DNA of 64,000 nucleotides, taken from contig JANHCV010000009.1 of NCBI GenBank assembly GCA_025594325.1, positions 1,178,001-1,242,000 of the forward strand, in the 5' to 3' direction. Source of the DNA: Blastocladiella emersonii ATCC 22665. Lineage: Eukaryota > Fungi > Blastocladiomycota. The notes beneath the pieces were generated by a model, which saw only the letters and a list, made by a program, of their open reading frames with translations, was not told where the DNA came from and did no database searches. Of this stretch, positions 29,369 through 60,407 are shown one piece after another. The position numbers and the translations under genes were made by a program. Position 1 is the stretch's first letter. Each line of letters begins with the position of its first letter.

Positions 29369-29746
29369 GTTTTAAATCCCGTCAACTTCATTGAGGCCAG
29401 CTGGCCATTACGCTTGCCTACCATTTCTTCAACACGTTCGTTCGTCGTTGACGATGATTCTGCAGTCCCCGTGAGCATGCATGAGCGAGTTGGCAACGCA
29501 CTGACCGGAACAGTGACTGTGAGATCAACTAAAACGGCGTTATCCGTGCCTACCACAATTCTTTCGCGTGGGATTACGGTGGAAACGCAGATGAGATGGA
29601 GAGAAGTGAGGGTTTCCTCGATGGGAGCGCGTCGTTCATTTGTGCCCAGCTCGCGTGATCGACAGCGGGACCTGACGCGTGCCCCGTTTCGAGCTCCAGC
29701 TCCCACCCGTCCTCCCGTTCGCCTCACCCCGATCGATGCAAAACAA

Positions 29747-32160: not shown

Positions 32161-32357
32161 CCATGACGCAGTCCATTGTTGGGTCGAATGTGCGTGTTGA
32201 GTCAATTTATTCTTGCCTGGATCCGCCCTTCAACAGGAGCGCGTGGTTCATTTGTGACCGCCTCGCGTGACCAAGCCTGCCAGTGGCGCTCACCTCGCTT
32301 CGAGCTCAAACTCTGACCCGCTCTCTTGCTCACCTCAACCAACTCGATGCAAAACGA

Positions 32358-34762
32358 ATGAAAATGGATCCGAAATTGGTGCAACACAATTCGACGGGCT
32401 TGCACGACCCAACGGTGGTGGCGACCAACTTGGCGCCCGTTGTTCCATCCTCGCTCACACGGCTTCCTGACGTTGCCCTCACGATCATTCTTCAGCAAGT
32501 GTGCCCGCGCTCGATTCTATGTGCTTCAACCCGTTCTCTTGCTTCGCTCGCGCGCATCCGCAGTATCAAGCGAGTGTGGGCGCCCGTCTTACTTGGGCGC
32601 CTCGCTCACCCGGACCTGTATCACGATTATGTTTTTGCCCGCGAGCCGCAGGCTGTAGACCGTATCGGCTGGGTCCTCGACCAGTCGTTCTTGAACTCGA
32701 AGCGAGACCAGCCTGTCGTTGGACTTGTCGCTCCCAACACCGATTTTCTACTGATCCTCTTGGAGTGCCTCCTCTTCGATCTCAACCGCCGTCATCACGG
32801 TAAAAACGCCACAGCAACCCTCGACGCACTGACTCGAACGGAAGTCCTCTATTCTCTGGGTCCACCTCTGGCTGCGAAATTGGACGGCGACTCGGTCGCC
32901 TGTTTTACGTTTCCAGGCGCTTCTGCTCTCCGCATTGCCATTTATGCGATCCCGAGCCACGACACTTGGCTGCTAACCCGAACTCTCAAGCTCTCGACGA
33001 CTCTCGCGCCTGATCTTGCCACGATGACAAGCTACTGCTTTTTGTGGTGGCTCATGTCCGTCGAAACTCAAAGTATCCTTTCCGCGCTCGGGTTGCATAC
33101 TGCGGCCATGGTGCTTCTGTCTTCGACCTCTTTTGCGGACCACTTGTTCACCCTCGCCGTTGTACACTGGGACGTTCGAATTTTCGAGCACATGCGCGAC
33201 TCTGGCCATGTTACGGACCCGCCATCTCTCGCACATACAATTGGCCCCAACACGCTGATGATGCTCGCGCTGCTCAACCTCTACCTCTCACCCGACCTGG
33301 GAGTACCCGCAACTGACATGGTTCCGATTTTCGACTACCTTCTTGCCTCATGCAAACCGGGCGTGCTTCGGACGCCACGCGGCATCCACGTTGCCGTCCT
33401 CTTGTGCCAATCCGATTCTCCCGCGCTTCTCATTCACGCCGCTCGCAAGCTGTCTGACCGTCTTGCCAACGATGTCGAAGACGGCGACCGCGCTGAGATC
33501 GCGCAAGCATTCAAGAGGTGGTCCAATGCAAATGCAGCGCTCGACGCGGACGACGTTGCGCTGCTGGCTGACCAGGGACTCGTTGACGATGCGGCGTAGG
33601 GGAGCATCATTATCATGGCCCTTCGCTGCTTTTCTTGTCGGTCGTCTTGGTTCGGGGCTTGAGGACGCGCTGGTTGAAGGTACGGTTTCCAACCCAATAC
33701 TGTTTAGCGAACTGTATTTGATTCTGACTACCATGCCTTATAGCCTTCTACCACAGCTCGTTGAGAGCTATGGAGGACGAGCGCAGCCTGCGCAACATCC
33801 TTGAATTTGCTTGCCAAAATCTTGGTGGCGAACCAGACAACGACTTTGTTTCTGAGCTCGTCGATCGATTGCTCGCAGTCATCTTGCATGTTGGAAACGG
33901 AGAAACTGACGAGAACAAACAGGGCGAAGCCATCTGCGATTTTACTAACCGGATCTTCGAAATTGCTTCCTACGCCAACCCGTGGCTCCTGTTTCGCATG
34001 CTTACCCTGCTTAGTCGAAGTGCCGACATGTCCCCCGACTCCGCCGAGCTCACGGTTCTTTCGTGGGTTCCTGCAATCTTTCTCGGCGACCCTCGGATTC
34101 GCGGCAAGGTACTTGATCTCATTCGCAAGGAGGGCACCGCGCGAGTATTTCTCGCCGCCATGCTGTGGGGCCAGTTGGGCGCATACCCTGCCACGTACCG
34201 GTTTGCACCAGGCTCTGGCCAAGGTTCGACTTACTTGTGCGATATCCGTTTCAGCGCCCTGTGGTTCAACGCCATGGAATCCTTGCATGGGCTCGGAACC
34301 ACAGCCACCACTCCAGGCTGGGTTCCGCGCGACCTGACGTCTTGCATCAGCGAGATCGCTTTTGACGACCCAGGGACTGCTCTGGTCTGTCGCCTGACGC
34401 ACGAAACCGAGATGTACGAGGGAGCCGAAGTTATTGACGACGATGAGTGCGACTGCGGCCACGTCCACCATCCGTCGCGGTTCATCAAAACAATGCGTTT
34501 TCTCGCCTGACACGAACTCGCAGCAACTCTTGGGTCGTGTGGCGAGGCGCAGCGCGTCCCGCTCGCGTTCTGGAAGCTGGTTCCCGATGGTGCGCTTGAT
34601 GGCGTCAAGGACGCGAGCTGGATCGCTGGCATGCTCGCCAAGCACCGGCGCGAGTCGTCTGATTCGACAGCGCTTGCGGTCGAGCAGGAGCTCCGACGCG
34701 TCGCGCCGCTGGCCACCCAGTCGCTCGAGTTCCTCGCTGCGGCCAAGCTCGCGCGCGAGTAA
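32358..34762 (+). pseudogene. Family B paralog 3; intron 33680-33743; stops and a deletion
   Basis: TAG at 33597 (paralogs AWG), a short deletion with frameshift near 33620, and TGA at 34508 where paralog 2 reads FLARHEL. Confidence 0.7.
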
Positions 34763-34934
34763 CCAGCGAGCCGTCGGTTTCTGTAGCGCGTGTACGCGCT
34801 GAATAATATATACTAGCTTTCGTTACTTTGTGCTTGCGGGCAGAGTCGCGCGCAGCTACGCTCACGCTGCCCTTGGATTGATGCTGAAGCGGCGGACAGG
34901 TTTATTCTCACGTGTCAACGTGTGTGTATTATGG

Positions 34935-36298
34935 TTACTCTTCCACTTTGGGAAACCAGTCAATGTTCAAGTCGTTGAAGCCGACCTTGTCAATCAGGTC
35001 TTGTAGCGTGCGCTCGTCATCGAACACGTTCAGCAGCAGTCGTCGGAGCGTCCGGGGAAGCCGCGAAACAAGCAGGCACGCGCTGTCGTAGCCAATGTCG
35101 TTGAGAATCAGGGACAAGCCAGTGAGCGAGCACGGGAACCAGCGTCTGGCCGCGGTGCTGGTGCAAGTCGCGCGAGCCGGACGCTGGGGAAGCTTCGAGG
35201 CGAAAGCAATGGTGGCCTTGTCATCGAGGTCGTTCTTCGAGAGGACGAGATACTTGAGCGTCGCGGGGAATGCTTCGGCAAGAGCGGCAATCCCCCGCTG
35301 GCCAATATTGTTGTCGTGGAGATCGAGCGACTGGAGGCATGCTGGCATGTGGGCGGCGAGACGCACGGCTCCCTCGGGGCCGATCTCAACACCACAAAGC
35401 GACAGCTGGCGAAGTTCTAAGGGCAGGCGTTCGACGAGGACGATAATGACTCGAAGCGGGAGATAGGCCGACCAAACTGGGCGTGTGATTACAAACGTCT
35501 GCAGGGTCGCGGGTAGCGAGCCCATTAGCACGCACGTCGACTCGAGCTCCCAATCGACATCAGAGAGCCGAAGCGTTTCGAGCGTTGACGGAATACCACG
35601 CGCGAGGCTGACAAGGGATTCGGGCGAAAGATACTCGGCTTCAGTTCTGCTCAACAGACGCATTTGGTGGCCGATGAGGTTCAGAACCTTGAGCGAGCGA
35701 GGAAGCTGGCGGAGAAAGCGTGACCCATCTGGCGCGTTGAGAAAGCAGCTGCCGAGATGGAGTACCTCAACCAAGTTTGGCAGCCACTCGCCCCGCACAG
35801 CTTGGCTGCGGCAGCCGAGAATGTTGTTCGAGAGGTCGAGCTCGCAAACCGTGTCCAGCAGCCCAAGGCGTACGAGCTCGGGAAGGCTGAGCGTCATATC
35901 GGCCAGCAAGACCCGAGTTACGGCCTGAAGCAGGTTTGAGAAAGCAGAGCGTAGAGCAGCGGCCGATGTCAGTGAGGCGCGCATTCTGAATGAAGACCTC
36001 GGTTGCGTGCCCCAAACGAAGGGACTGCGCCAGCGCTTGCGCTTGCGCGTCTCCTTTGGTTTGGAATTCATCAAAACACGGATCCTAAGCGATGAACCAT
36101 GTCTGCCCGTACGCGTGTTAGAAGGTTGCCTTAGGTCAGACAGTGAGAGCCCACATCCGCGTACCGCAAAAACTGGGCTGAACATGGCGTTGCATTCGAA
36201 CGGCACAATTGTCTCGGGGATGGCGATCCCACTCTCGTCGCGAAACCACTCAAGAACGTGAAACTGGGAAGTATTTCGCGCCGACGTGAGAAGGCTCG
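34935..36298 (-). pseudogene. 3' part of host LRR (RNI-like) gene split by the viral insertion
   Basis: Repeats such as LQSLDLHDNNIGQRGIAALAEAFPATLKYLVLSKNDL. The frame is open up to the insertion site and joins ORF 51090-51414 in frame once the element and one TSD copy are removed. Confidence 0.75.
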
Positions 36299-36303
36299 AG
36301 AGA
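36299..36303. repeat. Left target-site duplication AGAGA
   Basis: The identical 5-mer abuts both element ends (36299-36303 and 51090-51094). Confidence 0.9.
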
Positions 36304-36329
36304 TGCCGTATCCCTTAAGGGATACGGCA
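36304..36329. other. Terminal 26-bp perfect palindrome TGCCGTATCCCTTAAGGGATACGGCA
   Basis: Read directly from the sequence; self-complementary. Confidence 0.95.
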
Positions 36330-37039
36330 CATGGCTGCCCTTAGGGACTTCGCCTCTGGACTCTATCCACCCAGGCTAACCCACGTGATATCTCATTGCT
36401 TACCCCGAGTGACTCATAATGAATATAGCGATATCCTTAGGGATTTCGCCACCCGGATCGGAGGCCGAAGGCCGAAGCAGGTGGGCGGGGGGAGGGGGGA
36501 GGGGGGAGCGGCGATCACATGCCCCAGACGCGCAACGCAATGCGACCACGGAGTCACTCTATGAGCCGGCCCACGACTTGGTCGGCGACTTGGTTGCAGC
36601 AATAGGCCCTTGAAGGCTCTCGGAATAATTCCACCAGAGGTCGGCGGTCAGTCCAAGAACGCGAGCAGCGACCCAGGTCAGCGACCAGCCCCAGATGGCT
36701 CTTGATGGCCGCCCCAAACTGGACCGGGTTGGAGCTCACTGGACCGGGTTCAAAGACAACCCGGTCCATGAAATTCGCTTGGGGTAAGCCATGGACCGGG
36801 TTGACCGGGTTGACCGGGTTGTTTAAAGTAACAGTGTAGTGAAAAGGGGGGGAGGGACCGCTCCAGTGCCACTCTTCCCCCCCCCCTTTCAAATCCCTAA
36901 AGGTCAATCGACCCCCTCAACCCGGTCCACCCAGTCCATGGCTTACCCCGAGCGAATTTCAATCGACTTGGTCCATTGAACCTGGTCCATGGCTTATGGC
37001 GAACGGCTCAAAGGGCAGGCAACCCGGTCCAGGCTGCCG
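36304..37039 (+). repeat. Left terminal inverted repeat (~736 bp)
   Basis: Reverse complement of 50364-51089 by eye alignment. Contains repeated GGACCGGGTT/AACCCGGTCC motifs and a 12-bp local duplication absent from the right copy. Confidence 0.9.
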
Positions 37040-37108
37040 TGAACGGTCGCTGCAAGTACAGTAAACAAAAGGTACAAAGTTGTATTCACAAAGGAGTCTC
37101 TGGACTCG

Positions 37109-39415
37109 TTACATCTTGTCGTCGGACAGCTCAACTGTGTACGGCCCGCGGTACTTGTAGATGCGAAGCTTGCGGCGATTCACGGTGCGACGCGTCACCT
37201 CAAAGAGCTCCTGCTTGTTGGCCGGGTTGACTTCGCGCTTGATGTACTCACCGAACTTGGTCTGCGACATGGACAAGCGGCCAGGGAAGCGCTTCTTGGC
37301 GTACTTGCGGTAAAACTCGTAGAACGCGTCTGCCTCGAGCTCCTGCACAACTTCGACCTGGCGCGTGTGGTCCAGGAGGTTGAGCGGGAAGCCGCCGTAC
37401 TCCATGATGTCCATGGCCGGCGCGGGAACCGGCTCCAGTGCCGCCATGATGGCGTTGTTGCGGGCCTGGTTGCGCGAGAACTTGGACAGCGTCAGGTGCA
37501 AGAGGTCGAGGCAGAGGATGTAGGTAAAGATCTCGTCGGCGTGCTCCTTGACAAACGCGTTGAGCTCGCCAAAGTAGTTCTCGTCCTGGCACTTGATGTT
37601 GGACATCTTGAGGACGAACTCGCGGCAACCAGTCTTGGTGAGTGGCAGCACATTGCAGTTGTTGGTCGCGATCATAAAGTTGTTGACGTTCTTGACCTCC
37701 TTGCGTTTCATGTACTTTTCGTTGACAATGAGCTTGTCCTCGGTGACCATGCTCTTGAGCTTGTCAAACGCGTTCTTGAGCTTGGCTGGCTTGCTGGAGG
37801 GCATCTTGTCAAACAGCACGAGCATCTTGTGGGCGATCTCCGAGTTGAACTCGCCCTTGAGCCACGTTGGCCCGTTGCTGATGGACACCGTGTTCTTGCG
37901 GCCAATAATGTACTGGGCCAGAAGGTGGTAGAACTTGCCCTTGCCCACGCCCTCAAGACCCGTCAGCAGCAGCATCACGCCATTGGCCTTGCCTGTGGTG
38001 AGCAGGCACTGGATCCACTTGAGGACATACGCGTACTCTTCCTTGTTGCCGCTGCAGACCACGTCGCAAATGTACTCGAGGTACATGACAATCAACTCGG
38101 GCTCAATGTCGTGGCCAAGGTCTGTGGCCGCAAACCCGTAGAACGTGTTAAAGTAGTCGACCACGAGGCCGTTCTGGTGAGACGGGCCCCACTGCGGTTT
38201 GTGCATGTCAAAGATGAGCGCCTTGACCTGTGGAGCGTACTTGATGGCCCCCGTGCTGCACGCCTTCTTCACGTTGTCCTCGCCGTTGGTGTCCCAGGCG
38301 TCAGTCACGGTGCGGCGAAAGTACATCTCGCCGACCAGGTCCTTGTGGACAAACTTGCCCACGTACTTGATCACGGCCTCCTTCCACGACTGCTTGTCCT
38401 CGTCCACCTTGCGGCTGAGGTAGTGGGTGATGACCTTGCCGATCCAGTTGTTGTCGTAGTGCGGGTCACGCTCAAGCTGCACGGCAACAAACGCGGCCGG
38501 GTCCTTGCAAAAGTTGGGGAGCTTGCCCTTGTCCTTGGACTCAGGCACCGTGATCTCCTTCTCGTCCCACTCCACCTCAAAGCCCGTGTACTTGAGCGTG
38601 TTGGCAGACATCTTGGCAAGCAGCTCGGCGTTGACGCAGTCGTCCTTCTTGACCATGAACCCGTCAAACACAAGCACGCTTGGCACAAGGTTGTTGGCAC
38701 GGGCAAAGTCAATGGCGCGCATCAGGAGGATTGACTTGACAGCCTGGAACAGGTTGGAGAGCACTGAGCCCTTGTTCATGGTCTTGTCTGCGCGAGGCTT
38801 GGACGCCTTGACAACGTGCGGAAAGTCCTTCTCAATCAGCTTGTACAGCGAGCCGTACAGCATGTGGTGGAAGGCTGCAAGCTTGGGGTGCACCGCGTTG
38901 CAGTTGACAAACTCATTGAACAGCATTGAGAGGAACTCCTGCTTATCCCCGAGCCCCCACTTGGCCAGCACGGCCGTGCGGTTGGCGAGGTACTGGTCAA
39001 AGACGCCGTGGCCAAGGTTGTAGTGCTGGCAGACGCCGCAGAGGATCGACGGCGCCGCGCCCTTCATGTCAAGGTCCTGGAGCACGCCCTTGGCCAGCGG
39101 GCTGCGGATGAGGTCCTTGCTGAAGCTCTGGAGCGACGGCGACGTGGCGTAGAGTCGGCCAAACTTCTTCTTGACCAAGGTTGACCGCGTGGTGAACAAG
39201 TACACGGTCTCCTTGCCATCGCCGTAGCTCGCCTTGGCCAGCGCCGCGTAGGCCTTGAGCTTCTTCTTGACCTCAGCGTCAATGCCCGAGTACCGCGCGC
39301 AGAGCCCGTCAAGCACGTCCTTGTTGTAGTACTCGTGCAGCACGACCTGGCCCGAGTCCATGAACATGGACTTGGTGTAGTCGAGGGTCTTGGCGATCTT
39401 GGTTAGCTGGGGCAT
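37109..39415 (-). CDS. TVpol (PolA-related primase-polymerase) fused to SF3 helicase (~768 aa), probably inactivated by point mutations
   Basis: N-terminal GRLY...SLQ, DLDMKGAAPSIL and VFDGFMV motifs; C-terminal Walker A GLEGVGKG, degenerate Walker B LFDKM and NFMIATNN. ATG 39415 (MPQLTK). Confidence 0.8.
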   Translation of the reverse strand: MPQLTKIAKTLDYTKSMFMDSGQVVLHEYYNKDVLDGLCARYSGIDAEVKKKLKAYAALAKASYGDGKETVYLFTTRSTLVKKKFGRLYATSPSLQSFSKDLIRSPLAKGVLQDLDMKGAAPSILCGVCQHYNLGHGVFDQYLANRTAVLAKWGLGDKQEFLSMLFNEFVNCNAVHPKLAAFHHMLYGSLYKLIEKDFPHVVKASKPRADKTMNKGSVLSNLFQAVKSILLMRAIDFARANNLVPSVLVFDGFMVKKDDCVNAELLAKMSANTLKYTGFEVEWDEKEITVPESKDKGKLPNFCKDPAAFVAVQLERDPHYDNNWIGKVITHYLSRKVDEDKQSWKEAVIKYVGKFVHKDLVGEMYFRRTVTDAWDTNGEDNVKKACSTGAIKYAPQVKALIFDMHKPQWGPSHQNGLVVDYFNTFYGFAATDLGHDIEPELIVMYLEYICDVVCSGNKEEYAYVLKWIQCLLTTGKANGVMLLLTGLEGVGKGKFYHLLAQYIIGRKNTVSISNGPTWLKGEFNSEIAHKMLVLFDKMPSSKPAKLKNAFDKLKSMVTEDKLIVNEKYMKRKEVKNVNNFMIATNNCNVLPLTKTGCREFVLKMSNIKCQDENYFGELNAFVKEHADEIFTYILCLDLLHLTLSKFSRNQARNNAIMAALEPVPAPAMDIMEYGGFPLNLLDHTRQVEVVQELEADAFYEFYRKYAKKRFPGRLSMSQTKFGEYIKREVNPANKQELFEVTRRTVNRRKLRIYKYRGPYTVELSDDKM

Positions 39416-39539
39416 GGCCGAGTAGTTACTGTTGAGCAAAGAAAAAAGCATTGTACTTTGATGCGGAAAAACGCAGTCTGGGAGCAGGGGCAGGGCCGTG
39501 TACTTGAAGTGCCGCAATTATTGCTATTGCCGCTGGCCA

Positions 39540-39630
39540 TGACCTGACCCTGACCCTGACCCAGCTGCCCTTGCGTGACCTGACCCTGACCCTGACCCAG
39601 CTGCCCTTGCGTGACCTGACCCTGACCCAG
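39540..39630. repeat. 36-bp tandem repeat x2.5 built of TGACCC hexamers
   Basis: Unit GACCTGACCCTGACCCTGACCCAGCTGCCCTTGCGT. Confidence 0.85.
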
Positions 39631-39640
39631 ACACGACCTC

Positions 39641-40070
39641 CCCCATGAGCCCGACTTGGGAGCCAATCGCGTCTCATGTCACGATCCTTGAACCGTGACC
39701 TGGGCAGTGACTGAGGGCAAAGTCACCAACCCCCCATGCTCCCAACTTGGGAGCCAATCGAGTCTCAGGTCACGATCCTTGAACCGTGACCTGGGCGGCG
39801 ACTGAGGGCAAAGTCACCAACCCCCCATGCTCCCAACTTGGGAGCCAATCGCGTCTCAGGTCACGATCCTTGAACCGTGACTTGGGCAGCGACTGAGGGC
39901 AAAGTCACCAACCCCCCATGCTCCCAACTTGGGAGCCAATCGCGTCTCAGGTCACAATCCTTGAACCGTGACCTGGGCAGCGACTGAGGGCAAAGTCACG
40001 GACCCCCCATGCTCCCGACTTGGGAGCCAGTAGGGTCCGAGGTCACAAACCTCTCAAACCGTGACCTGGG
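39641..40070. repeat. 91-bp tandem repeat x~4.7 with two internal palindromes per unit
   Basis: The CCCCATG anchor recurs at 91-bp spacing (ATG at 39645, 39736, 39827, 39918, 40009). Confidence 0.9.
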
Positions 40071-40195
40071 CCCTCCCACGGTCCATGACTTGCCACCACC
40101 CTGACCCTGACCCAGGCCCAGCTACCCAGAAAAAAGAACGTTGCGTTCAAACGCACTTGAGCCCATGGAGCCTTTTTGTTGACAGTCAGTAAACC

Positions 40196-41346
40196 ATGGC
40201 GCTTGACTCTCTTGCCTCCCAGGTCGCCATTGCCCTTGCTCAGCACTTTGCTGCCAATGTAGTGCACCAAGTGCTCGATGGTATCAAGCCGCTGCTGGCA
40301 TGCTGGCATCCTTTGACAAGCGGCTCAAGGGAGTTGAGACCAGCCTCGCCGCGCTGGCTGCAGTGTCACATAACTGCAATCACTGTCCCAATCACACCCC
40401 CGTCGACGAGTCTGGTGAGCCCATGGACACTGACCCCCAGGTCAAGTACGCGCAGATGACCAAGGAATCCATTGCGGCGTGCATCAACGCGCGTGTTCAG
40501 AACAAGCACGGGGAACTGGTTGAGCTGAGCGACACGGACAAGGCCAAGACATCCCGCGTGCTCTGTGCCTTTGCCAAGTCGGGCATAGACATTGAAGACG
40601 TTGATGCCGTGTCCAAAGCTGTGGCAGCGTACCGCGCGTCCAAGGGCAAGCAGGGGCTGCAGGTTGAGACGCTCAAGGCCCTGGCCAAGTACTGCACCTG
40701 GAATGGTCAGCCTGAACTCGGGGCCAAGTACACAGAGGCCAAGAAGCAGGACGCTGCCGACTTCCGCGACGCGTGCAAGGAACTCGAGTCTGGTGCGCTC
40801 CCAAGCCGTGACGCCATTTGCACTGCTATTGTTGATGCAAAGGGCTGGGACTCAGGCACGGGGCTTCTGCGTCTGTACCTCCAAGTTGTGAGTGCAGTGC
40901 GCAGCGACCCTGCGTTCCTGACCACAAAGCCAATCACTGGGTACCCGTACTACAACCCAGAGACCCAGATTCTGGCCGGCGATGTCATTGTCAAGACAGA
41001 GGGCTGTGGCTACAACTTCTCGCACACAGTTAGTGAGCCCAAGGTCGCCGCCGCTCTCAAGCGTATCATTGCCCAGCGTCTCGCCAAAGGCCATGACTTT
41101 GTCTTCAACAACTACACCCGCGAGGAGCTCAAGGACACCATGCTCTGCAAGAGGGTTAGCAACACCTGGTGCAAGTCAATTCACCAGGCTGCAGAGACAG
41201 TTGGCTTTGAGGATGGCGGCGTGGCAGTGATCCGCCGTATCTCCACCAGTGAGAACTTTGCTGCACAGCAAGCTATTGCTGACTGCGCACACAAGATGGG
41301 TCACAGCGTCCCTGTTGCCTTGACCTACTACATGACGCCTCAGTAA
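40196..41346 (+). CDS. Tyrosine recombinase / protelomerase-like protein; 8-bp duplication at 40294-40309 shifts the N-terminus
   Basis: Catalytic-order motifs AVRSD (R), VIVKT (K), VIRRI (R) and MGHSVPVALTYY (H...Y). The ORF from 40300 gives 348 aa; removing one GCTGGCAT copy gives a continuous ORF from ATG 40196. Confidence 0.7.
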
Positions 41347-41374
41347 TCCTCTTGTCTCCGCCTTTGTTAATACA

Positions 41375-42487
41375 ATGTATGCCCACAAAGAGCCGCTCAC
41401 AGACGCACAGCAAGCATTCCTGACAGACTTGTACTACAAGCACAGCCACGTAGGTGTTGGCATCCGTTGGCTCTTTGACATTGTGTCCAGAGAGAACACA
41501 GGGAAGCACATCTACTGCGCCCAGCTTGAGAGATGGCTCGGCGAACAGTCTGTGTGGCAGCAGTACAAACGCGCACCTCAGAAGCGCCAAGACATTTGAA
41601 GCATCAACTCAACAAGTCCTGGCTGCAACTTTCAGCTCGACCTCATTGACATGGGCGAAAACGGTACGTACAAGGGCTTCCATTACATTCTCACGTGTGT
41701 CAACCTGGCGAGCCGCCACGTCTACCTCCAACCCATCAAGACCAAGGACAAGACGCGGGAAGCATGGTCCAGCGTGGTTGCCAAGCACAGCCTTGCACCT
41801 GCCACGATCCAGACGGACAATGAGACCGAGTTCTTTGGCATAGAGGCCGGGACCGAGGCCAAGCACATCAAGGGCAAGGCAGGAGTGCCATACAGTCAAG
41901 GTGTTGTTGAGCGTATGAACGGGACCATCCGCCGGATGCTCACACCGTGGCTGTCCATCCCGGGCAACAACGACTGGCCCAAGCACCTCGAGACCATTGA
42001 ATCTGTGATCAACAGCAGCAAGTCGAGGGCCACGGGCAGGGCGCCCAACGAGTTCCATGACATGCCCCGCAAAATGGCCAAGGAAGAGCTCAAGGCAATC
42101 CAAGCTGCCAAGGGCAAGCCAGAAGGCAACCCTCTGAGCGCGTTGTTGAAGGTAGGGACCCAGGTCCAAGTCCGCGAGCCGTACAAGACTGCCATGGAGG
42201 CCAAGGGGAAGCCGGTCTGGTCGCCAACTGTGAGCCAGGCCCAGGTCGTGCGCAAGGGGTCGGGCGTGAGCAATCCAAGCTACAAGGTCCAAGGCCTCAA
42301 GGGCTTCTATCCACACAGCGACGTCCAGCCAGTCACAGCGACCCAGGACCCGCCAGCAAGGCAGCGCGTAGGTCCAAGTCTTCCAAGGCTCCCTGCTGCG
42401 CGCACCCCGGTCACGCCAAGGGAGCCCTCGACCCGGGTCAGGCGCGTCCCAGTCCAAGTCCAAGAAAAGTGGGACCTTGGGCTTTAG
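41375..42487 (+). pseudogene. Retroviral-type (rve, DDE) integrase with one in-frame TGA at 41597
   Basis: FQLDLIDM (D), IQTDNETEF (D), SQGVVERMNGTIRR (E), and a Polinton-type C-terminal LKVGTQVQV...WS...Y block. ORFs 41375-41599 and 41651-42487 are in the same frame. Confidence 0.9.
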
Positions 42488-44427
42488 AGCAGGGTCCAGT
42501 AGCTTTGAATGATGACCTGGCAGTTGTTGGCAATTGCGACCAATGGGATCCAGATGAAAGAGTAGCTCTTGGCCGCGTCAAGGTACTCAATGCTCGAGAA
42601 CTGAAGGAACTGGACGTTGCCTTCAGCGCGGCACCCAGTGACAAGCGACACTGCAATCATGTCCGTCATATTGTACAGCGCAAAGTTCACAGTGTGGGCT
42701 CCAGGGAGCGCGCCGTTTGCGTAGTAGCCCTTTGCATGGACGAGGTAGTAGCCACTGACAGGGGGTTTGACACATCCATTGATCACAGACGTGAACGCGC
42801 CTGCCGTGGACTGGAACGCAAAGGTGGCCGGGCCCGTCAATGCTGTGCCGCCAATGATCTTGCTGCCCGTGGTCACTCCGTTTGTAGAGCGGTGCTTGGC
42901 CTGAGCGACATACCAGGTCATGCCAGACTGCAAGTCAACGTACGCCTTGTTTGCCGCGTCGGTGCCTGCCACTGGAGTGAGGTCAAGGGTGAGCTGCCCT
43001 GTGAAGCGACCAGTGCCATTGACGCGGAGCTTTTCTGTGCCAAGCGTCGCCGAGCCCACAACCACGTTGCCGCCACCTGCCACAAGGGAGACCCCACCCG
43101 TGGTTGCAGACGCAATCTCAATGTTACCCGCCGCTGTGCATGCCAGGTTGCTTCGCAGTACGCCTGCCTGCTTAAAGTCGACGTACGTCAATGTATTGGC
43201 AGCCAAGTCAAAGACAAGGTTTGCGCTTGTGGCATTCTGGACCAGGACGTTGGGCACAGTCAGTTGCTTGCCAACTCCAAGACCACCAGCAATGGTGACT
43301 GCTCCAGTGCTTGATGTCAAACTGTCCGTCGTACTTGCAAAGGCAAAGGCAGCGCCAAGCCCAAGGGTGGACTGGGGGAGCGTGCCAGCGACCGAGGCTG
43401 CGCTCACCGCTGTGACCTTGGCCGAGACGTCGGGGAGTTGTGCCAGGTCAATGGTCCCTGCGAGCTTGGCTGAGTCAATGCCGGATGCCAGCTTGGCGTT
43501 GGTCAGGGTCCCGTCTGCAATGCGGGCAGGGTCAAGGATCCCAGTGAGCTTGACTGCTGACACGTCTGTAACCTTGGCGTCCGTGACTGCACCTGCTGCC
43601 AGGTGGGAAGATCCAATGGACCCGACGTTGAGCTTGGCCCCGTCAATGCCAGTTGCCAGCTTGGCGTTGGTCACGGCCGCGTCTGCCAGGACCGAGGTGC
43701 CAACTGTGCCCGCTGCCAGCTTGGACCCGTCGATGCCAGCTGCCAGTTTGGCGTTCGATACGGCACCGTCTGCCAGGGCTCCCGTCCCAATAGTCCCTGC
43801 AACGAGCTTGGACCCAGACACGGACGCGACCTTGGCATCTGTGACTGCCAGGTCAATGAGAGCCGCCGTGCCGACTGTGCCTGCCACAAGCTTGGACCCA
43901 GACACGGACGCGACCTTGGCATCAGTCACTGAGCCGTCTGCCAGGACTGAGGTCCCAACTGTGCCTGCCACGAGCTTGGACCCGGACACGGACGCAACCT
44001 TGGCATCTGTCACTGAGCCGTCTGCCAGGACCGAGGTTCCAACGGCTGGGAGGTTGGACGCACTGAGCACGCCCACGACCTTGGACGCAGACACAGTGTC
44101 CAGCTGAGCATCGACGAGCTTGCCTGTGACCTGCCCTGCTGTAATCGTGGCGACCTTGTTGGCCGTGACGCTGGCTGGGAGCAGCTGTACCGTGCCAACC
44201 GACTTGACATAGAGCCCAGCTGCGCCCACGCCAAGGGTCTGGTTGTCGACCTTGGTCGAGACAGTGGTCCCTGAGACTGCCACGCCAGGGCCAGCAACAG
44301 GTGCGCCAACCGTGGCGTACACGGCACTGATGGCCGCGTCAACGTAGGCCTTGGACACGTCCGGGACCCCCGTGGTAGACACGGTCGGAGACGCAGTACT
44401 TGAGACGTTAAAGATATTCTTGACCAT
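42484..44427 (-). CDS. Putative virion fibre/spike protein (647 aa) with repeated shaft and possible C1q/TNF-like head
   Basis: Repeats such as VGTSVLADGSVTDAKVASVSGSKLVAGT, a SKAYVD/NKAYVD motif near both ends, and a beta-rich C-terminus with PPVSGYYLVHAKG. Confidence 0.65.
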   Translation of the reverse strand: MVKNIFNVSSTASPTVSTTGVPDVSKAYVDAAISAVYATVGAPVAGPGVAVSGTTVSTKVDNQTLGVGAAGLYVKSVGTVQLLPASVTANKVATITAGQVTGKLVDAQLDTVSASKVVGVLSASNLPAVGTSVLADGSVTDAKVASVSGSKLVAGTVGTSVLADGSVTDAKVASVSGSKLVAGTVGTAALIDLAVTDAKVASVSGSKLVAGTIGTGALADGAVSNAKLAAGIDGSKLAAGTVGTSVLADAAVTNAKLATGIDGAKLNVGSIGSSHLAAGAVTDAKVTDVSAVKLTGILDPARIADGTLTNAKLASGIDSAKLAGTIDLAQLPDVSAKVTAVSAASVAGTLPQSTLGLGAAFAFASTTDSLTSSTGAVTIAGGLGVGKQLTVPNVLVQNATSANLVFDLAANTLTYVDFKQAGVLRSNLACTAAGNIEIASATTGGVSLVAGGGNVVVGSATLGTEKLRVNGTGRFTGQLTLDLTPVAGTDAANKAYVDLQSGMTWYVAQAKHRSTNGVTTGSKIIGGTALTGPATFAFQSTAGAFTSVINGCVKPPVSGYYLVHAKGYYANGALPGAHTVNFALYNMTDMIAVSLVTGCRAEGNVQFLQFSSIEYLDAAKSYSFIWIPLVAIANNCQVIIQSYWTLL

Positions 44428-44447
44428 GTTTAACCTTAAGCAACAGA

Positions 44448-44699
44448 ATGATTTCCAGCGACCATGACCTGAGCCTGGACAAGTGGCGGGAGCACCTCGC
44501 CGGGACCATGCCCGTTCCAAGCAGCTGGTACAACAAGAGCGACAAGGACAAGGCCAAGTGGCTACGGAAGCGCGACTGCAAGGCCAACCGGTACACGCAC
44601 GTCGACAACGAGGCAGCGCGGGCCGAACGGGTCAAGATCCGGATCTACAAGGCACTCAACGCCAAGCGCCGGGACCAGGGGGCAAATAGCACCGTCTGA
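44448..44699 (+). CDS. Small basic hypothetical viral protein (83 aa)
   Basis: ATG-started ORF with the same codon style as neighbouring viral genes, divergent from the fibre gene. Confidence 0.5.
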   Translation: MISSDHDLSLDKWREHLAGTMPVPSSWYNKSDKDKAKWLRKRDCKANRYTHVDNEAARAERVKIRIYKALNAKRRDQGANSTV

Positions 44700-44811
44700 G
44701 GGACAAAAGGCACCTGCCACGGGGAAAAAGGTACGCCCAATGGTGCAAGATGCACGGGGAAAAAGGTACCGACAGGGGGACGCTTTATTTTTGGTCCATA
44801 CAGTAACTATC

Positions 44812-46527
44812 ATGGGCCAAAGAACAGTACCAGATCTACTTGCAAGAGTGACCAATGCAACCAGCGGGCGCATCACGGCCGAGCACCTTGCAGGGCAGAA
44901 GCTCAAGGCAACCATTGATGGCCGCAAGTACACGTTCCCCAATGCCAAAGAGCTCCTTGACGTCTGGGTGCCTTACATCCTTGCCTTTGACTACAAGGTG
45001 ACGCCCGAGAGCTATGCCAACGACTTTGGCTGCAAACAAGGCGACTCGCTGTTCTACCTCAGGCACCAGGACGGCGTCACTAGGTACAAGGTCAAGGACC
45101 TCCAGGAGCACGTCCAAGATACGCTTAAAGCGTGGGAAGAGCACCAGGCAACAGGCAAGGTCACTTGAGTCCCAGTTGCTCCACCAGTGGCAAGCCCCAG
45201 ACCAGAGGCCCCCAAGTTGGCCATGGACAGCAACAGGGGCAGCAGCGAAGAGGAACGCGACGAGCTGGCAGAAGAGATCTCACAAGCCCTGGACGTCATT
45301 GATGAGGACGCTGTACCAGACCACTTGCTCCCTGTGCCCGTCCGGCCAGTCATGCCCAAGCAGTACCCAGTCGAGGCCAGCGACTATGTTGGTCAAGACA
45401 TTGAAGAGTACGGCGCCATGATCCCTGGCCAGTACCTGATCCAGAATGACAATGACGGTGGCAACGACTCGCCCCCAAGGCTTGACAACGGCACCCGCAA
45501 CCTCGTGGTCATGCCACCAAGCTACGGCCCGGACGTGGCACAGCGGCAAGGCGTGTACAACGAGGGTCACGTCCACCCAGCCATGGACGAGGCACGCATG
45601 ATCGAGGGCTCCAAGGACTTGCAGGTCTACAACCCCGAGCGGGCGCTGACAACCACGGACAACATGGAGGTCGACGTTGTCCAGAACTTTCAACAGTTTA
45701 ACCAGTTTGTGTACAACAGCTCCACGCAGCAGAACACGCAGAACGTCAACATGCGGCAGTTCATCACCCAGTACAAGAACAACTACTACGAGCAGAACGT
45801 GGACATGCGACAGCAAATCCTGGTCCAGTACAACAATGACCCGAACGTCATGGCTGCGCTCAAGCTCATTGCCTCGCAGTTTGCCGGGTCCCAGGTCATG
45901 CAGTACCAGGCGTACCAGGCGCTCATCAAGCAGTCGGTGGCCGCTCAGGGACTGGCCATGGACGCATTTGCCAACCTCGCGTCCGGGATTGTGGACACGC
46001 TCCGAGCCAAACGCAACGACTTTGTCCGCCAGATTGACGCTGGCAACTGCGCGCTTGTGTCTGAGATTGCCACGGGCATGTCCTCGGCTCTCAGCAACCA
46101 GCAGGTGCTCATGAACCAACTTGCAAGCGGCGTCCAGGGCGCGATCCAAGGGCAGACCCAGAGCAACAAGGCCATGACCAAGACGCTCCAAGACCTTGGG
46201 TCCAAGCTGGACACGATCCCTGCACCCCAAGTCATTGTCCAGCCTGCCGACACAAGCGGCCTCAAGGCCATGATCAGGGAGCTGGCCGCGCAAAACAATT
46301 CTGGCGGTAGTTCTAAGAAGACCGACATGCTCCTCGAACAGATCCTCAAGCAACTGGGCTACAGGAAGCCAACTGACGCGAAGCTGTTCACAGACAAGCG
46401 GGCAGCGGGTAGCGGGCTGACAGCGCCCAAGATCCAGCGTCACCAGAAGATCCCTGAGCGGCCTGTCAAGCAGGTCCGCGAGACCCCAAGGCGCAGCGGC
46501 ATTGTGCTTGACCTCGGCTGGGACTGA
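44812..46527 (+). pseudogene. Hypothetical viral protein (~571 codons) with one in-frame TGA at 45166
   Basis: ORFs 44740-45168 and 45187-46527 are in the same frame, separated only by TGA (KVT*VPVAPP). N/Q-rich central part. Confidence 0.6.
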
Positions 46528-46553
46528 CGCCCTTTTTTGTTGGCAGTCTTTAA

Positions 46554-47351
46554 ATGTACGACATTGTTGCCATTGACAACGGCTTTACACGCAACGACAA
46601 CGGCGAACCGCTGCCAATCCCCAAGCACCCGTTCACCATGAACGTCATTGGTGCCAAGGGTCAGGGCAAGTCGACGCTGATCGCAAACATGGTCTGCTTC
46701 CCACACTTTTACAAGGGCCAGTTTGACAACGTCTGGGTCTTTAACCCGACGTTCCACGCCGACAACGAGTACGAGTACATTGCCAGTCAACCAATCCTGT
46801 GACCGCCCAAGAAGGAGCGCAACGTGCTGGACCCCCAGGAGCGCGACCCGGACCGGCTCAAGATCAAGCCAGGGTGCATTGTCACGGACCCCGAGCAGTT
46901 CATCCCAACCCTGCTCAAGATGCGCCAGGACCTGACCAAGACATTTGAAGAGTCTGGCAAGAAGGCGCTCCAGGACCAGCTGCTGATCATCGACAACGTG
47001 CTTGGGCTCAAGCTGCTGAGCCACAGAACGCTGACCAACTTTCTGTGCAACTCGCGGCACTTGAAGATCAGCTGCATCATTGGCGTCCAGCAGTGGTGTG
47101 CCCTGCCCAAGACTCTGCGCATCAATTGCAGCTACAGCGTCGTCTACCCAATCTATGACAAGACCAAGGTCCAGACGCTGCACAAGGAGATTGGGTCGCA
47201 GTTCGACCTCAAGGAGTTTGAGGCCATCATTGAACAGCTCTTTGACACGCATACTGGCAACACAAAGCGACGCTTCCTGGGCGTCAACAACCAGAACCCG
47301 CCCAAGTACCGGCTCGTAGACAGCTTCAGCAAGTGGATTGTCAAGGGATAG
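46554..47351 (+). pseudogene. FtsK/HerA-family (A32-like) genome packaging ATPase with in-frame TGA at 46800
   Basis: Walker A GAKGQGKST, degenerate Walker B LLIIDN, and SRHLKISCIIGVQ...LPKTLRIN. The two ORFs are in one frame. Confidence 0.9.
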
Positions 47352-47390
47352 ACCGCCAACTTTTTTTGTTGCAGTGTTCTAAACTAAACC

Positions 47391-48611
47391 ATGTCCAGTA
47401 CCAACGCCCAGTTCTCGCAGGTCCTGTCCAAGACTCTCCCTCCCGAGATGTCATTCAACCTGCCCAAGGAGTCCGTCTATGCCGAGCGCCAGACCGTCCA
47501 GTTCACGGCTCAGGGCGGCCCTGAGTTTGCTCCTGGCAACAGCATAAGCGTCCTGCTCCCGCCGCGCGACGACATGATGGACACGCACTGTACTTTCCTG
47601 CAGTTCTCGGCCAAGACCACAGACGCCAACGTCGCTTTTTGCAATGGTATCTTCAGCGTCATTGACCGTGTCCGCATCTACAGCGCGTCTGGTGCCCTAC
47701 TCGAAGAGCTCCCGTACTACAACCTGCATCAGCGCATTGAGGCCGACGTGACGGTCCCCCAGTACCTCAAGGACTCGTGTCTTGGCGTGGCACAGGGCTA
47801 CTTTGCGTCTGGCGCTGACAAGTTTGCCGTCTCGTCTGGGCTGCACCGGTACATGCTGCCCATCAAGTCCGCCCTGCTGGCGAACCAGAAGCACCTCCCA
47901 ATGAAGTACATGGGCGGCATCCGCGTTGAGTTCACCCTTGCACCTGGCAGCGACGCCTGCGTGGTCAAGAACAATGCAATCCCGGGCTACACAGTCAAGG
48001 ACGTCTGCATTGTCTCGGACCTGATCAAGCTCAACGACCAGCAGATCGCGGTCATGGACGCGGCCTTCAAGAAGCAGGGCCTCAAGCTCTTTGGCACGAC
48101 CTACAACCACCACTTCCTGAACTACTCAGTGCCCAACTCGACGCTCAACATCTCGGACCGCTCGGCCTCACAGAAAGACATCCTGCTGTCGTTCCGCAAC
48201 AATGCCGTGCTCAACGACAATGCCAAGGACTCGTTCCTTTGTGCCAAGACCATTACATCGTACCAGTTCAGCGTGGCCGGCCAACTCTTCCCTCAGTGAC
48301 CCATCCGCTGTGACGACTATGCGTCCGAGGCGTTTGTTGAGCTGACCAATGCCTTCCATGGCCACGTCATTGGCGCTGGCCTCACAGTTGACAAGTTCAA
48401 CGCGCCGGCCGAGGGTACCTTTGTTGTCGGCCGTGACCTTGAGTCAAGTCGCACCGTGGTCAGCGGCGACAAGTCTTGCAAGAGCCAGGCCGTGGACATG
48501 CAGGTGATCCTGACTTCAAGCGTGGCCCCGAACCAGCGCGTGGACGCCTTCATTGGCATCGACGTGGTCTACGAGTTCCTGCCAACCGGCGAGATCAACA
48601 TCTACAAGTAA
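47391..48611 (+). pseudogene. PLV-type double jelly-roll major capsid protein (406 codons) with in-frame TGA at 48297
   Basis: SVIDRVRIYSASGALLEELPYYNL near the N-terminus. The frame continues past the TGA through GTFVVGRDLE...SG to EINIYK*. Located between ATPase and minor capsid gene. Confidence 0.8.
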
Positions 48612-48653
48612 CGGCCCTGTCCTTTCTTTTCTTGCGTAGAGTTAAACCCCGCC

Positions 48654-48920
48654 ATGATCTTCCGTAACCTCTGGACCAACTTTAGCAATGTGCTCGGCCA
48701 GGTTGGGTCCTTTGTCAACAAACACATGCCAACCGTCCTCAAAGGCGTCAAGACCGTGTCCAAGTTCTTTGAGCGGTCGCACAACCCCGCCGTGAGCTCC
48801 ATTGCGCAGATGGTGACCAAGGGCGCGGACCTTGCCCAAGACATTCACACCTGGTACAACCAACCAACAAGCGAGATCTTTGAGGCAGACGCTGACGACA
48901 CGGGGACAGCTGTACAATAA
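48654..48920 (+). CDS. Small protein (88 aa) with N-terminal amphipathic helix
   Basis: MIFRNLWTNFSNVLGQVGSFVNKHMPTVLKGVKTVSKFF; sits between MCP and minor capsid gene. Confidence 0.6.
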   Translation: MIFRNLWTNFSNVLGQVGSFVNKHMPTVLKGVKTVSKFFERSHNPAVSSIAQMVTKGADLAQDIHTWYNQPTSEIFEADADDTGTAVQ

Positions 48921-48938
48921 ATTGTTGTCTTTGTTTAA

Positions 48939-49670
48939 ATGTCCGAGTACAAGACGCTGACCATCTGCAGCCGTGACCTCAAGAACGGCATCCTGTACCT
49001 ACCACAACCCCTGTCCGTGCGCGGCGTCAAGGTCAACTCGGCGTACCTCTGCAACAGCTGGCACAAGGCCAACAAAGTGTACCTGACCCAGAGCCGTGGC
49101 GCGCTGACGTTCCCGGGCACCATCACCGTCCCTGATGGCAACTACACGGTCGAGACGTTCACGGCCACGCTCAAGAGCCTGCTCAACAACGCGCCCTCAG
49201 CGTACCTCTGGCAGGGCACATGGGACGTCCAGGTTGACTCGACTACCCAGAAGATGCGCCTGGCCAACGACACGGTTGACTTTACAATTGGAACAGGGAC
49301 GGCGTCGCTGAACGTCCACATGGGCTTTGTTGGAGCGTATGGCTACAGCAAGGTCCAGTACGCGTCGGCGCTGGTCAACATCTCGCCCATCAACCTGCTT
49401 CACGTCTACTCGCGCAACCTTGGCACCCGGCTTGCGGACAACATGTACAGCGCGTACCCACAAGACAACGGCGTACTTTGTAGCATCCACGTCACGCAAC
49501 CCTTTGGCAGCTGGTTTGAGCATCGACCACACATGGGTGACTACTTTCGCTTTGACGCGCAGGGACAGGCCCAGCAGATTGACTGTATTGACATTGACGT
49601 GGTAGACAAGAACCTGCGCTCTGTCAACTTTCTCGGCCAACCCTTCTACGTCGAGCTCGCGTTCATCTGA
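48939..49670 (+). CDS. Minor capsid (penton) protein (243 aa)
   Basis: VPDGNYT insertion motif and C-terminal IDCIDIDVVDKNLRSVNFLGQPFYVELAF pattern typical of PLV/virophage pentons. Confidence 0.8.
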   Translation: MSEYKTLTICSRDLKNGILYLPQPLSVRGVKVNSAYLCNSWHKANKVYLTQSRGALTFPGTITVPDGNYTVETFTATLKSLLNNAPSAYLWQGTWDVQVDSTTQKMRLANDTVDFTIGTGTASLNVHMGFVGAYGYSKVQYASALVNISPINLLHVYSRNLGTRLADNMYSAYPQDNGVLCSIHVTQPFGSWFEHRPHMGDYFRFDAQGQAQQIDCIDIDVVDKNLRSVNFLGQPFYVELAFI

Positions 49671-49701
49671 CGTTGACTTTAATTGTTGTCGTACTGTAAA
49701 C

Positions 49702-49797
49702 ATGATCCTCGAGACGCTCCTTGTTGCAACCAACGCCCTGATCCTCGTAGCCAACCTGGCCATTGTTGGGTACAAAGCAAAGTATTCCGCGCCGTAG
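49702..49797 (+). CDS. Predicted 31-aa single-pass membrane micropeptide
   Basis: MILETLLVATNALILVANLAIVGYKAKYSAP*, preceded by the TTGTTG...TAAAC-ATG motif seen upstream of other viral genes. Confidence 0.5.
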   Translation: MILETLLVATNALILVANLAIVGYKAKYSAP

Positions 49798-50035
49798 AGT
49801 AAGCAAAAACATGTGCTTTAAATTCTTTCTTCAAAGGCATAGTAAGACACAGGACAATGAATACTGGCTCTACTGCATCAACGCCCCGCGCACCTTCCAC
49901 GAGCATCCCTTGGACTGGCCGTCCGGGCCCCCAGTCAACAGCCAACTACACGGCCATCCACAACGTGGCCCTGCCAGGTGCCAAGGTTGTGTACACTGTC
50001 TGCTTTGAATAGATCCTTCAAGTTAACTTGGTTAG

Positions 50036-50215
50036 CTACCTTGAAGCCTTTACTGGTCGCTCTCAGACTACCCGCCAGTATGTGTACTTGTGCCCACAGC
50101 ACGGGTACACAACTTGGACCCACAGCAGCTCATTGTCATGGACCCAGCTGGGAGCATCATAGTGATCGCATGGCGGCTTGGGCAGGGGGACGATCTCTTT
50201 GATACAGCCTCGCAT
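50036..50215 (-). CDS. Small Cys/His-containing viral protein, possibly with internal TGA at 50063
   Basis: MRGCIKEIVPLPKPPCDHYDAPSWVHDNELLWVQVVYPCCGHKYTYWRVV*ERPVKASR*; upstream TTGTT...GTAACT-ATG motif. Confidence 0.35.
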
Positions 50216-50363
50216 AGTTACAGTAGTCCAACAAAGTTTAAATTGACAAACGCATTCAACGCACTTGGCATGACGTAGCAACGGGACACACTACGGCATT
50301 GTGGACCCGACCAGGGCCCCTGCCCACTTTTGAACAGCTCGCCGTAAGCCATGGACCGGGTCG

Positions 50364-51089
50364 CGGCAGCCTGGACCGGGTTGCCTGCCCTTTGAACCGT
50401 TCGCCATAAGCCATGGACCAGGTTCAATGGACCAAGTCGATTGAAATTCGTTCGGGGTAAGCCATGGACTGGGTGGACTGGGTTGAGGGGGTCGATTGAC
50501 GTTTAGGGATTTGAAAGGGGGGGGGGGAAGAGTGGCACTGGAGCGGTCCCTCCCCCCCTTTTCACTACACTGTTACTTTAAAACAACCCGGTCAACCCGG
50601 TCAACCCAGTCCATGGCTTACCCCAAGCGAATTTCATGGACCGGGTTGTCTTTGAACCCGGTCCAGTGAGCTCCAACCCGGTCCAGTTTGGGGCGGCCAT
50701 CGAGAGCCATCTGGGGCTGGTCGCCAACCTGGGTCGCTGCTCGCGTTCTTGGACTGACCGCCGACCTCTGGTGGAATTATTCCGAGAGCCTTCAAGGGCC
50801 TATTGCCGCGACCAAGTCGTGGGCCGGCTCATAGAGTGACTCCGTGGTCGCGTTGCGTTGCACGTCTGGGGCATGTGATCGCCGCTCCCCCCTCCCCCCT
50901 CCCCCCGCCCACCTGCTTCGGCCTTCGGCCTCCGATCCGGGTGGCGAAATCCCTAAGGATATCGCTATATTCATTATGAGTCACTCGGGGTAAGCAATGA
51001 GATATCACGTGGGTTAGCCTGGGTGGATAGAGTCCAGAGGCGAAGTCCCTAAGGGCAGCCGTGTGCCGTATCCCTTAAGGGATACGGCA
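50364..51089 (-). repeat. Right terminal inverted repeat (~726 bp) ending in the 26-bp palindrome (51064-51089)
   Basis: Reverse complement of 36304-37039. Confidence 0.9.
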
Positions 51090-51094
51090 AGAGA
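51090..51094. repeat. Right target-site duplication AGAGA
   Basis: Matches 36299-36303. Confidence 0.9.
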
Positions 51095-51414
51095 CTCTTG
51101 CGACAGACCGCCAGGTGGCCAACCATATCGTAACCTTTTGTGCATGACCGAGTGGACCCGCACAGCTGGGCAAGACAGAGAGCGTGGAGCGCGCCTTGCA
51201 CACACGCATTTTCGACGTTTTGAAGCGACACGGCTCGTTTGGTAACGGCAAGAAACACTCGCGGCGCCACGGCGCGAGGAAGGACGCGCGAATAGTGGGC
51301 CAGCGCGTAGTCAAGCGGGTCGGTACAGAAAACGGCGTAGACCAAGATGCGCTCTGCCACCTCGACCGGCACACGGCAGCGCGGTTCATTCGATTGCATC
51401 AAGTCGTTACTCAT
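51090..51414 (-). pseudogene. 5' part of host LRR gene split by PLV-1
   Basis: MSNDLMQSNEPRCRVPVEVAERILVYAVF...AVCRKSL runs into the TSD. The rejoined frame reads RKSLSSLLTSARNTSQFHVLEWFRDESG. Confidence 0.75.
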
Positions 51415-59910: not shown

Positions 59911-59936
59911 TGAAGTATCCTTATAAGGATACTTCA
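59911..59936. other. Terminal 26-bp perfect palindrome TGAAGTATCCTTATAAGGATACTTCA
   Basis: Read directly from the sequence; self-complementary. Confidence 0.95.
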
Positions 59937-60262: not shown

Positions 60263-60407
60263 GTGTCCCTGTGTCCCAGTGTCCCAGCGATTTTCACTTG
60301 TAGCTCGTATTTTGAACTGAAAACAGCATACTAACTAAGTATGTTAGTTATATTTTTCAAATTTATAAAAAAGAATATTTAGCTGGGACACTGGGACACT
60401 GGGACAC
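60263..60407. repeat. Inverted triplets of GTGTCCC/GGGACAC (8-bp period) flanking an AT-rich core
   Basis: GTGTCCC at 60263, 60271, 60279; GGGACAC at 60385, 60393, 60401. Confidence 0.85.

Follow-up and report, generated by a model that had tools for sequence, protein, structure and literature searches.

How did a leucine-rich repeat (LRR) gene of the zoosporic fungus Blastocladiella emersonii come to be interrupted by 14,786 bp of DNA with the gene content of a virus, and what has become of this DNA since? The locus lies in the 64,000-nucleotide window of strain ATCC 22665 analysed here (GCA_025594325.1, contig JANHCV010000009.1, positions 1,178,001 to 1,242,000), and all coordinates below are those of the window. 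We suggest, with good confidence, that the element is one copy of a multi-copy family of Polinton-like viruses (PLVs), which was inserted into the LRR gene as linear TG...CA DNA by an rve integrase and in which stop codons appeared later via CpG methylation.

The element extends from 36304 to 51089, begins with TG and ends with CA. It is flanked by two copies of AGAGA (36299-36303 and 51090-51094); the probability that two host 5-mers match at random is 0.16%. Alignment of both ends gives terminal inverted repeats (TIRs) of about 740 bp at 36304-37042 (plus strand) and 50361-51089 (minus strand), in which 720 of the 733 aligned positions agree; the global alignment contains 714 matches, 13 mismatches, one 12-bp gap and two 1-bp gaps. 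Each TIR closes in the same perfect 26-bp palindrome, TG...CA, at 36304-36329 (hairpin fold, z −3.95) and 51064-51089. Thus, the extent, the TG...CA ends and the 5-bp target-site duplication (TSD) proposed in the preliminary description of the locus hold. It was also proposed there that restoration of the reading frame fixes the exact boundaries. The boundaries stand, but they are set by the TIRs and the terminal palindromes; frame restoration agrees with them and selects 5 bp, and is no proof of them, because AGAGA is periodic and all three frames upstream of the junction are open, for 71-132 codons. Owing to the same periodicity, overlaps of 1 bp and 3 bp also fit formally, which is a caveat on the 5-bp reading. 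Both flank-to-TIR junctions are found in the short-read contigs of three of four runs (X1, X2 and X3), reaching 29 bases into the TIR, and the junction pieces of X1 and X2 are identical to the window sequence; all four runs derive from one sample, possibly the source of the window.

The interrupted gene is read on the minus strand. Its 5′ part occupies 51095-51414, with the ATG at 51414, and its 3′ part 34935-36298, where 453 codons and a TAA follow the split codon in one open frame with a Pfam LRR_6 match (27.8 bits, cut-off 23.4). The 325 nt from the ATG, one TSD copy included, and the 1364 nt up to the TAA at 34935 make up a frame of 562 codons closed by a stop (1689 nt), without an in-register internal stop in either half; the claimed open reading frame (ORF) of about 562 codons from 51414 to 34935 is indeed restored when the element is deleted from the sequence. 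In each half one frame ranks first of six by host codon usage, and the 5-bp reading alone connects the two; the 3′ half has 15 and 12 stops in its two other frames. An F-box at the N-terminus (Atlas score 0.77, no Pfam hit) is a lead only.

The insertion might be real and still have met an ORF already dead, or the space between separate ORFs, with no working gene lost. The region is rich in frameshifted paralogue arrays, the three upstream frames are all open for at least 71 codons, and the database search for intact LRR paralogues returned six distant LRR hits only, the homologues of the two halves staying at or below 42% identity and never reaching across the junction; the 5′ half has no relative among 172 candidates and does not align to the six LRR hits. 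Against this stand the 562 stop-free codons, in which codon usage favours one and the same frame to the left and right of the junction, the LRR hit above cut-off, the host-like CpG level of the ORF (1.19) and its position, filling the slot between neighbours that end near 34763 and 51677. We hence regard the loss of a working gene as the better account and a dead target as unlikely.

The viral nature of the insert is seen in its capsid gene (47391-48611, plus strand, TGA at 48297-48299), which encodes a double jelly-roll (DJR) major capsid protein, as read from its cluster and from the fold of a sister copy. The model was made from that sister copy (P0127, 406 aa, 95% identical) with an alignment of 82 sequences. 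It has a predicted local distance difference test score (pLDDT) of 94.7, and its best Foldseek matches are PBCV-1 Vp54 (E 3e-17), the Sputnik capsid ranking 49th. P0127 has no Pfam hit, MCP_V20_C being touched by one of the 82 aligned relatives at 0.0016. The capsid has 277 relatives, the best outside the species being 37% identical. Next to it lies the gene of an A32-type packaging ATPase (46554-47351, plus strand, TGA at 46800-46802; Pox_A32 3e-8, 33.8 bits, cut-off 22.8). A probable minor capsid protein of 243 aa (48939-49670, plus strand) is matched at E 6e-4 among 682 ORFs by a small profile of four proteins from viral contigs, which are presumed pentons by their position and motifs; this candidate has no library hit. 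Single-protein patterns found no relatives of the capsid, recombinase or ATPase in viral or metagenome contigs, and a phage tblastn search was blank.

The remaining core genes serve replication and integration. The replicase (37109-39451, minus strand, 780 aa) has a C-terminal SF3/D5-like helicase (DUF5906 9e-17; PHROG primase 2e-22), whose Walker B motif reads FDK in this copy, and an N-terminal domain that is, presumably, a PolA-like TVpol, judging by its motifs. This N-terminal domain is common to a second, divergent element, whose left end lies in the same window (59911-64000, minus strand, cut by the window end), and to 12 viral loci. A stand-alone rve (DDE) integrase is encoded at 41375-42487 (plus strand, TGA at 41597-41599); the DDE motifs are present, and its matches to Pfam rve (0.0014) and the IS481 transposase (8e-12) are both below cut-off. 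The neighbouring ORF at 40300-41346 (plus strand, 348 aa) is a probable tyrosine recombinase, judged from Atlas features (0.95 to Preplasmiviricota clusters and 0.94 to a cluster with Phage_integrase on 16% of its members) and from an R...K...R...MGH...Y series, the R-K-(H)-R-H-Y set, read by eye. Between the divergent replicase and recombinase genes, the repeat search found tandem repeats of 36 bp and 91 bp (39540-40071), a possible origin or promoter.

With these genes the element is a PLV: it combines a DJR capsid, an A32 ATPase, a length within 14-40 kb with TIRs, and its own replicase and integrase. It is a PLV rather than a Maverick, a virophage or a retroelement because the Pfam scan of 13 element ORFs or ORF pieces found no protein-primed family B polymerase (pPolB), no protease and no reverse transcriptase. 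From a Maverick/Polinton it has the rve integrase with a 5-bp TSD, the rve and IS481 hits being below cut-off, and it lacks pPolB; of a virophage of the Sputnik or mavirus type it has neither the maturation cysteine protease nor the capsid. An LTR retrotransposon or endogenous retrovirus is rejected, as the repeats are inverted, not direct, and reverse transcriptase is missing.

The element belongs to a family, which, like the terminal palindromes, goes unmentioned in the preliminary description of the locus. Its capsid cluster has 26 members, and the 15 listed are all from B. emersonii, namely seven full-length 406-aa capsids and eight minor-capsid gene models; by locus tags, the members listed represent at least 12 sister loci. 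The cluster's 303-aa members were tried as a second capsid gene and rejected, being spliced models of the minor capsid ORF and an 88-aa ORF without assigned function (48654-48920, plus strand, from the ORF list). Such splicing is seen in the public gene models P0277-P0288, where viral proteins are annotated as hypothetical fungal proteins. Contig depth is no measure of copy number; in X1, the long interior contigs have depths of 210-647 (rve contig 466, ATPase and capsid contigs 487-647, replicase contig 210) against 30-38 for the flank contigs, and in X2, a depth of 1256 for a contig within the recombinase gene compares with 152-157 for the flanks. At these depths, with the rve contig near those of the ATPase and capsid, the rve and recombinase genes look like family genes and not a private insertion. 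The replicase contig has about half the depth of the capsid and integrase contigs, which may mean that replicase variants exist within the family.

How was the element inserted? The DDE integrase would cut host DNA with a 5-base stagger, repair would yield the AGAGA pair, and the LRR gene would be knocked out. That a linear genome was inserted in this way by rve, and not by a recombinase crossover, is in our view very likely. The preliminary description had placed rve catalysis over tyrosine-recombinase integration, and we keep this as the best inference, since the DDE motifs are present and TSDs of cryptophyte PLVs go with rve: they flank 58% of rve-cluster elements against about 4% of tyrosine-recombinase (YREC) elements (PMC12220804). 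The claim is softened in that the catalyst is deduced from these features and a probable recombinase is also aboard.

The competing view, that a tyrosine recombinase integrated a circular genome at a shared 5-bp core, so that AGAGA is the core and rve a passenger, gains from the probable recombinase gene itself, which is free of stops, has the catalytic motifs as read by eye and adjoins the replicase. It gains also from the correlation of PolA and archaeo-eukaryotic primase (AEP) replicases with tyrosine recombinases (10.64898/2026.10.13.758929), a link that the same source calls elusive, and from the symmetry of the 26-bp site, which is like that of a recombinase target. Yet the flank contigs stop 29 bases inside the TIR, and a core common to all copies should stop 31-mer contigs sooner; this argument is indirect, from graph logic, and TIR base 29 is also polymorphic. 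Furthermore, GAGTG and not AGAGA precedes the second element, though that element is of another family, and TSDs are rare around YREC PLVs (PMC12220804). Taken together, this makes a crossover very unlikely.

With rve as the integrator, the tyrosine recombinase would probably act on replication intermediates, in excision or in giant-virus integration. A recombinase has been suggested to resolve replication intermediates at entomopoxvirus ends (PMC11296320), and a telomere resolvase has been proposed for a phaeovirus (PMC13236599). Blastocladiomycota are infected by Mycodnaviridae (PMC13533422; its main text does not name Blastocladiella), and the recombinase may instead integrate the element into a giant virus.

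This copy is defective. TGA stops break the integrase (41597), the ATPase (46800) and the capsid (48297) genes, and all three are TGA; hence the element, described earlier as a complete provirus, is complete in gene layout only, and would no longer supply integrase, ATPase or capsid by itself. In X1 and X2, the dominant contigs do not have the capsid stop. The divergence of this copy has a direction. The CpG observed-to-expected ratio is 0.79 inside the element against 1.23 and 1.27 outside. Out of 40 differences (40 of 677 rows), 33 pair a T or A of the window with a C or G of the runs, and 32 of the 33 lie in CpG context. In a second difference set (40 of 42 rows, of which 29 were classified and 11 left out as 8 transversions and 3 reverse transitions), 24 of 28 window-T/A rows have CpG context, the background being near 40%; ten of the 11 left-out rows cluster in a single divergent block at the ATPase end. 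CpG transitions also make up 10 of the 13 TIR mismatches and 32 of the 43 capsid residue differences, the latter compared with 253 among 804 possible transitions. CpG transitions classically result from the deamination of methylcytosine. Judged by this pattern, the stops in this copy likely arose through host CpG methylation. Our literature search found no paper on CpG deamination in PLVs.

Several points weigh against the proposed history. Read mapping across the empty site had been named as a check, and no element-skipping joint, that is, no empty-site allele, is present among the 10 joints listed for the four runs of one sample. No homologue covers the host junction, as noted above. Among the three stops, only that of the capsid is shown to be absent from other copies in the rows covered, and a literature search for 5-methylcytosine (5mC) in B. 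emersonii found no report. PDB and phage searches for the TVpol label were blank. The recombinase label was confirmed by none of the Pfam, PHROG, PDB or fold searches: BLAST against a viral-contig recombinase gives E 13, the profile match is not significant (E 4.1), and the fold model (pLDDT 40.5), too poor for a meaningful search, gave no match. Moreover, PLVs with a replicase of this type mostly rely on tyrosine recombinases for integration (10.64898/2026.10.13.758929). An assembly artefact, either a repeat copy misplaced into a unique contig or stops that are sequencing errors, is hardly credible: in its favour are the high repetitiveness of the family, the lack of a listed contig across the whole element and the absence of most window alleles from short-read contigs, but both junctions are in such contigs, a misjoin would not yield a 5-bp duplication with an in-register frame, and the differences are CpG-specific, unlike sequencing error.

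The terminal palindromes suggest how an inserted linear genome of this kind may be copied. There are three 26-bp palindromes in the 64-kb window, all at element ends, the next longest being 14 bp; each of the three has a hairpin fold (z −3.7 to −5.5). The third, at 59911-59936, is preceded by the GAGTG mentioned above and opens the second element, which has a GC content of 0.52, a CpG ratio of 1.04 (less CpG loss) and a polymerase-helicase gene at 60830-63205 (791 aa). The replicases of the two elements are 34% identical over 189 aa in the N-terminal domain, and the palindrome half-sites agree in 9 of 13 bases, with all four differences mirrored. The free genome would be linear and copied by the polymerase-helicase fusion, and, because a protein-primed polymerase is absent, the palindromes may fold into hairpins that prime synthesis or regenerate the ends. 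Each TIR also holds a 56-bp internal inverted repeat (36769-36961; 50442-50636) in which GACCGGGTT units surround G/C runs; it may form a secondary hairpin or act as an origin.

Palindromic ends also occur in free viral contigs. The scan with the two replicase N-terminal domains that gave the 12 viral loci led to IMGVR_UViG_3300011115_000803 (L122/L134), a free, complete, virophage-like contig of 18,684 bp with 681-bp exact TIRs and a perfect 70-bp palindrome at both ends. It shares with our element the TIRs, the palindromes at both ends, the related polymerase-helicase as terminal gene and a recombinase-like gene; it differs in a protease-like gene, in its longer, AT-centred palindromes and in that no rve was detected among its ORFs. 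A PLV-like contig (L138), reached via a relative of the L122/L134 recombinase, likewise ends in a perfect palindrome of 76 bp (14141-14216) near a primase-helicase gene. Terminal palindromes are thus found in two of nine related viral contigs with at least one end; the others are mostly fragments, so that misses say little, and palindromes at contig ends can be assembly artefacts. A degenerate palindrome pattern hit five viral stretches, none a perfect palindrome, and at least 116 metagenome stretches; four of the 121 matches examined (viral and metagenome) are perfect, and none of the loci has an element gene. The same polymerase-helicase relative is seen inside large viral contigs of 72-353 kb (L127-L130, 9776-11965), possibly as PLV modules within giant viruses.

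As rve would do the integrating, the recombinase could serve as a telomere resolvase or excisionase on the 26-bp palindrome: PLVs would replicate with hairpin ends, and integration would capture opened hairpins. We offer this tentatively, as an idea with the odds against it. It is consistent with the conservation of the palindrome through four mirrored substitutions across two divergent families and with the palindromic ends of rve-less free relatives, and, if true, would explain why tyrosine recombinases are frequent in viruses with PolA- and AEP-helicases. No paper linking PLVs with a protelomerase was found.

Much of this has precedents. PLVs are known in Spizellomyces punctatus and Allomyces macrogynus, with 5-7-bp TSDs at three of seven TIR-bearing fungal and oomycete elements (PMC7805220), and further chytrid PLV ATPases are published (10.64898/2026.06.19.733378). 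Our element shares with these PLVs of zoosporic fungi the integrated state, a size of about 15 kb, the DJR capsid, the TIRs, the ATPase and the helicase; it differs in that no chitinase is seen. Endogenous mavirus-like elements (EMALEs) of types 5-7, which are mid-GC elements of Cafeteria burkhardae (PMC8547959), are also similar in having rve together with a tyrosine recombinase (a probable one here), a long primase-helicase and no pPolB, as well as TIRs, TSDs of mostly 3-5 bp and host-exon insertions (13 of 22 EMALE sites are in exons). However, EMALEs carry the mavirus capsid and protease, while no protease was found here and the capsid model matches PBCV-1 Vp54 far above Sputnik. Mavericks/Polintons (Polintoviricetes) share the rve integrase, TIRs, 5-6-bp TSD, DJR capsid and A32 ATPase, and differ by pPolB and the cysteine protease. 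The Halocafeteria seosinensis virophages and PLV subtype 4 likewise have palindromes at the TIR ends beside the TSDs, the example being 52 nt long against 26 nt here; in that work terminal palindromes are tied to non-pPolB replicases and hairpin priming is already proposed, rve with recombinase occurs in virophages but is lacking in PLVs, and 5mC was not detected (10.64898/2026.07.28.741278). In contrast, our element has a fungal host, and its copies bear the marks of CpG decay.

Hence, the insertion as such is ordinary: PLV and EMALE insertions with TSDs in host exons, fungal PLVs and terminal palindromes are all published. Provided that the recombinase label is right, the combination of stand-alone rve with a tyrosine recombinase and a PLV-type capsid seems to be uncommon. 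According to PMC12220804, the pair was not found among 8300 elements of the cryptophyte study, and there and in 10.64898/2026.07.28.741278 rve with recombinase is seen only in virophages or as nested retrotransposons; a large protist survey left out fungi (PMC10120064). This pairing makes it possible to tell the roles of the two enzymes apart. Our search for B. emersonii together with polinton found no paper, though such elements, or PLVs with both integrases, may figure in the supplements of PMC7805220, PMC10120064 and the 2026 preprints; in the main text of the genome paper, a term search found no "transpos", and viruses only in the references. Our searches thus found no description of this case, a laboratory-model zoosporic fungus in which near-identical PLV copies number at least 13 and the capsid gene is whole in several of them. 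The terminal palindromes extend the hairpin-priming idea of 10.64898/2026.07.28.741278 to fungi. The copies also record CpG-directed mutation, a hint that Blastocladiomycota control viral inserts by methylation, and, with intact-capsid copies available, the fungus offers a culturable model for hairpin-ended replication and the role of the recombinase.

The other genes of the element lie between integrase and ATPase. A fibre-like repeat protein of 647 aa (42484-44427, minus strand; Phage_Tail_Tip 2.5e-9) is built on 84-87-bp repeats. Three plus-strand ORFs without assigned function follow (44448-46527; 83, 142 and 434 aa, no Pfam hit), and at 44717-44753 the contig of one run is without 35 bases, so that the two short ORFs may be joined into a single gene elsewhere in the family.

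The flanks consist of paralogue arrays that evolve fast. A giant-virus origin of the flanks was considered and is rejected: the large polymerase gene, a single open frame at 21088-25890, is the cellular RNA polymerase III largest subunit (RPC1), 100% identical to a B. emersonii protein over the 801 residues searched (73% in B. britannica). A tandem family of long proteins with METH... starts and a conserved C-terminal YEERPG motif, several members being frameshift-split, occupies 265-16865 and 56449-59404; eight of its long ORFs were scanned without a Pfam hit, and it matches no known family. A second tandem paralogue array at 27242-34763, with a spacing of about 2.6 kb, has an F-box-like start and frame breaks. 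Finally, an in-frame TAG lies close to the end of the paralogue at 57881 (59284-59404), directly before the second element.

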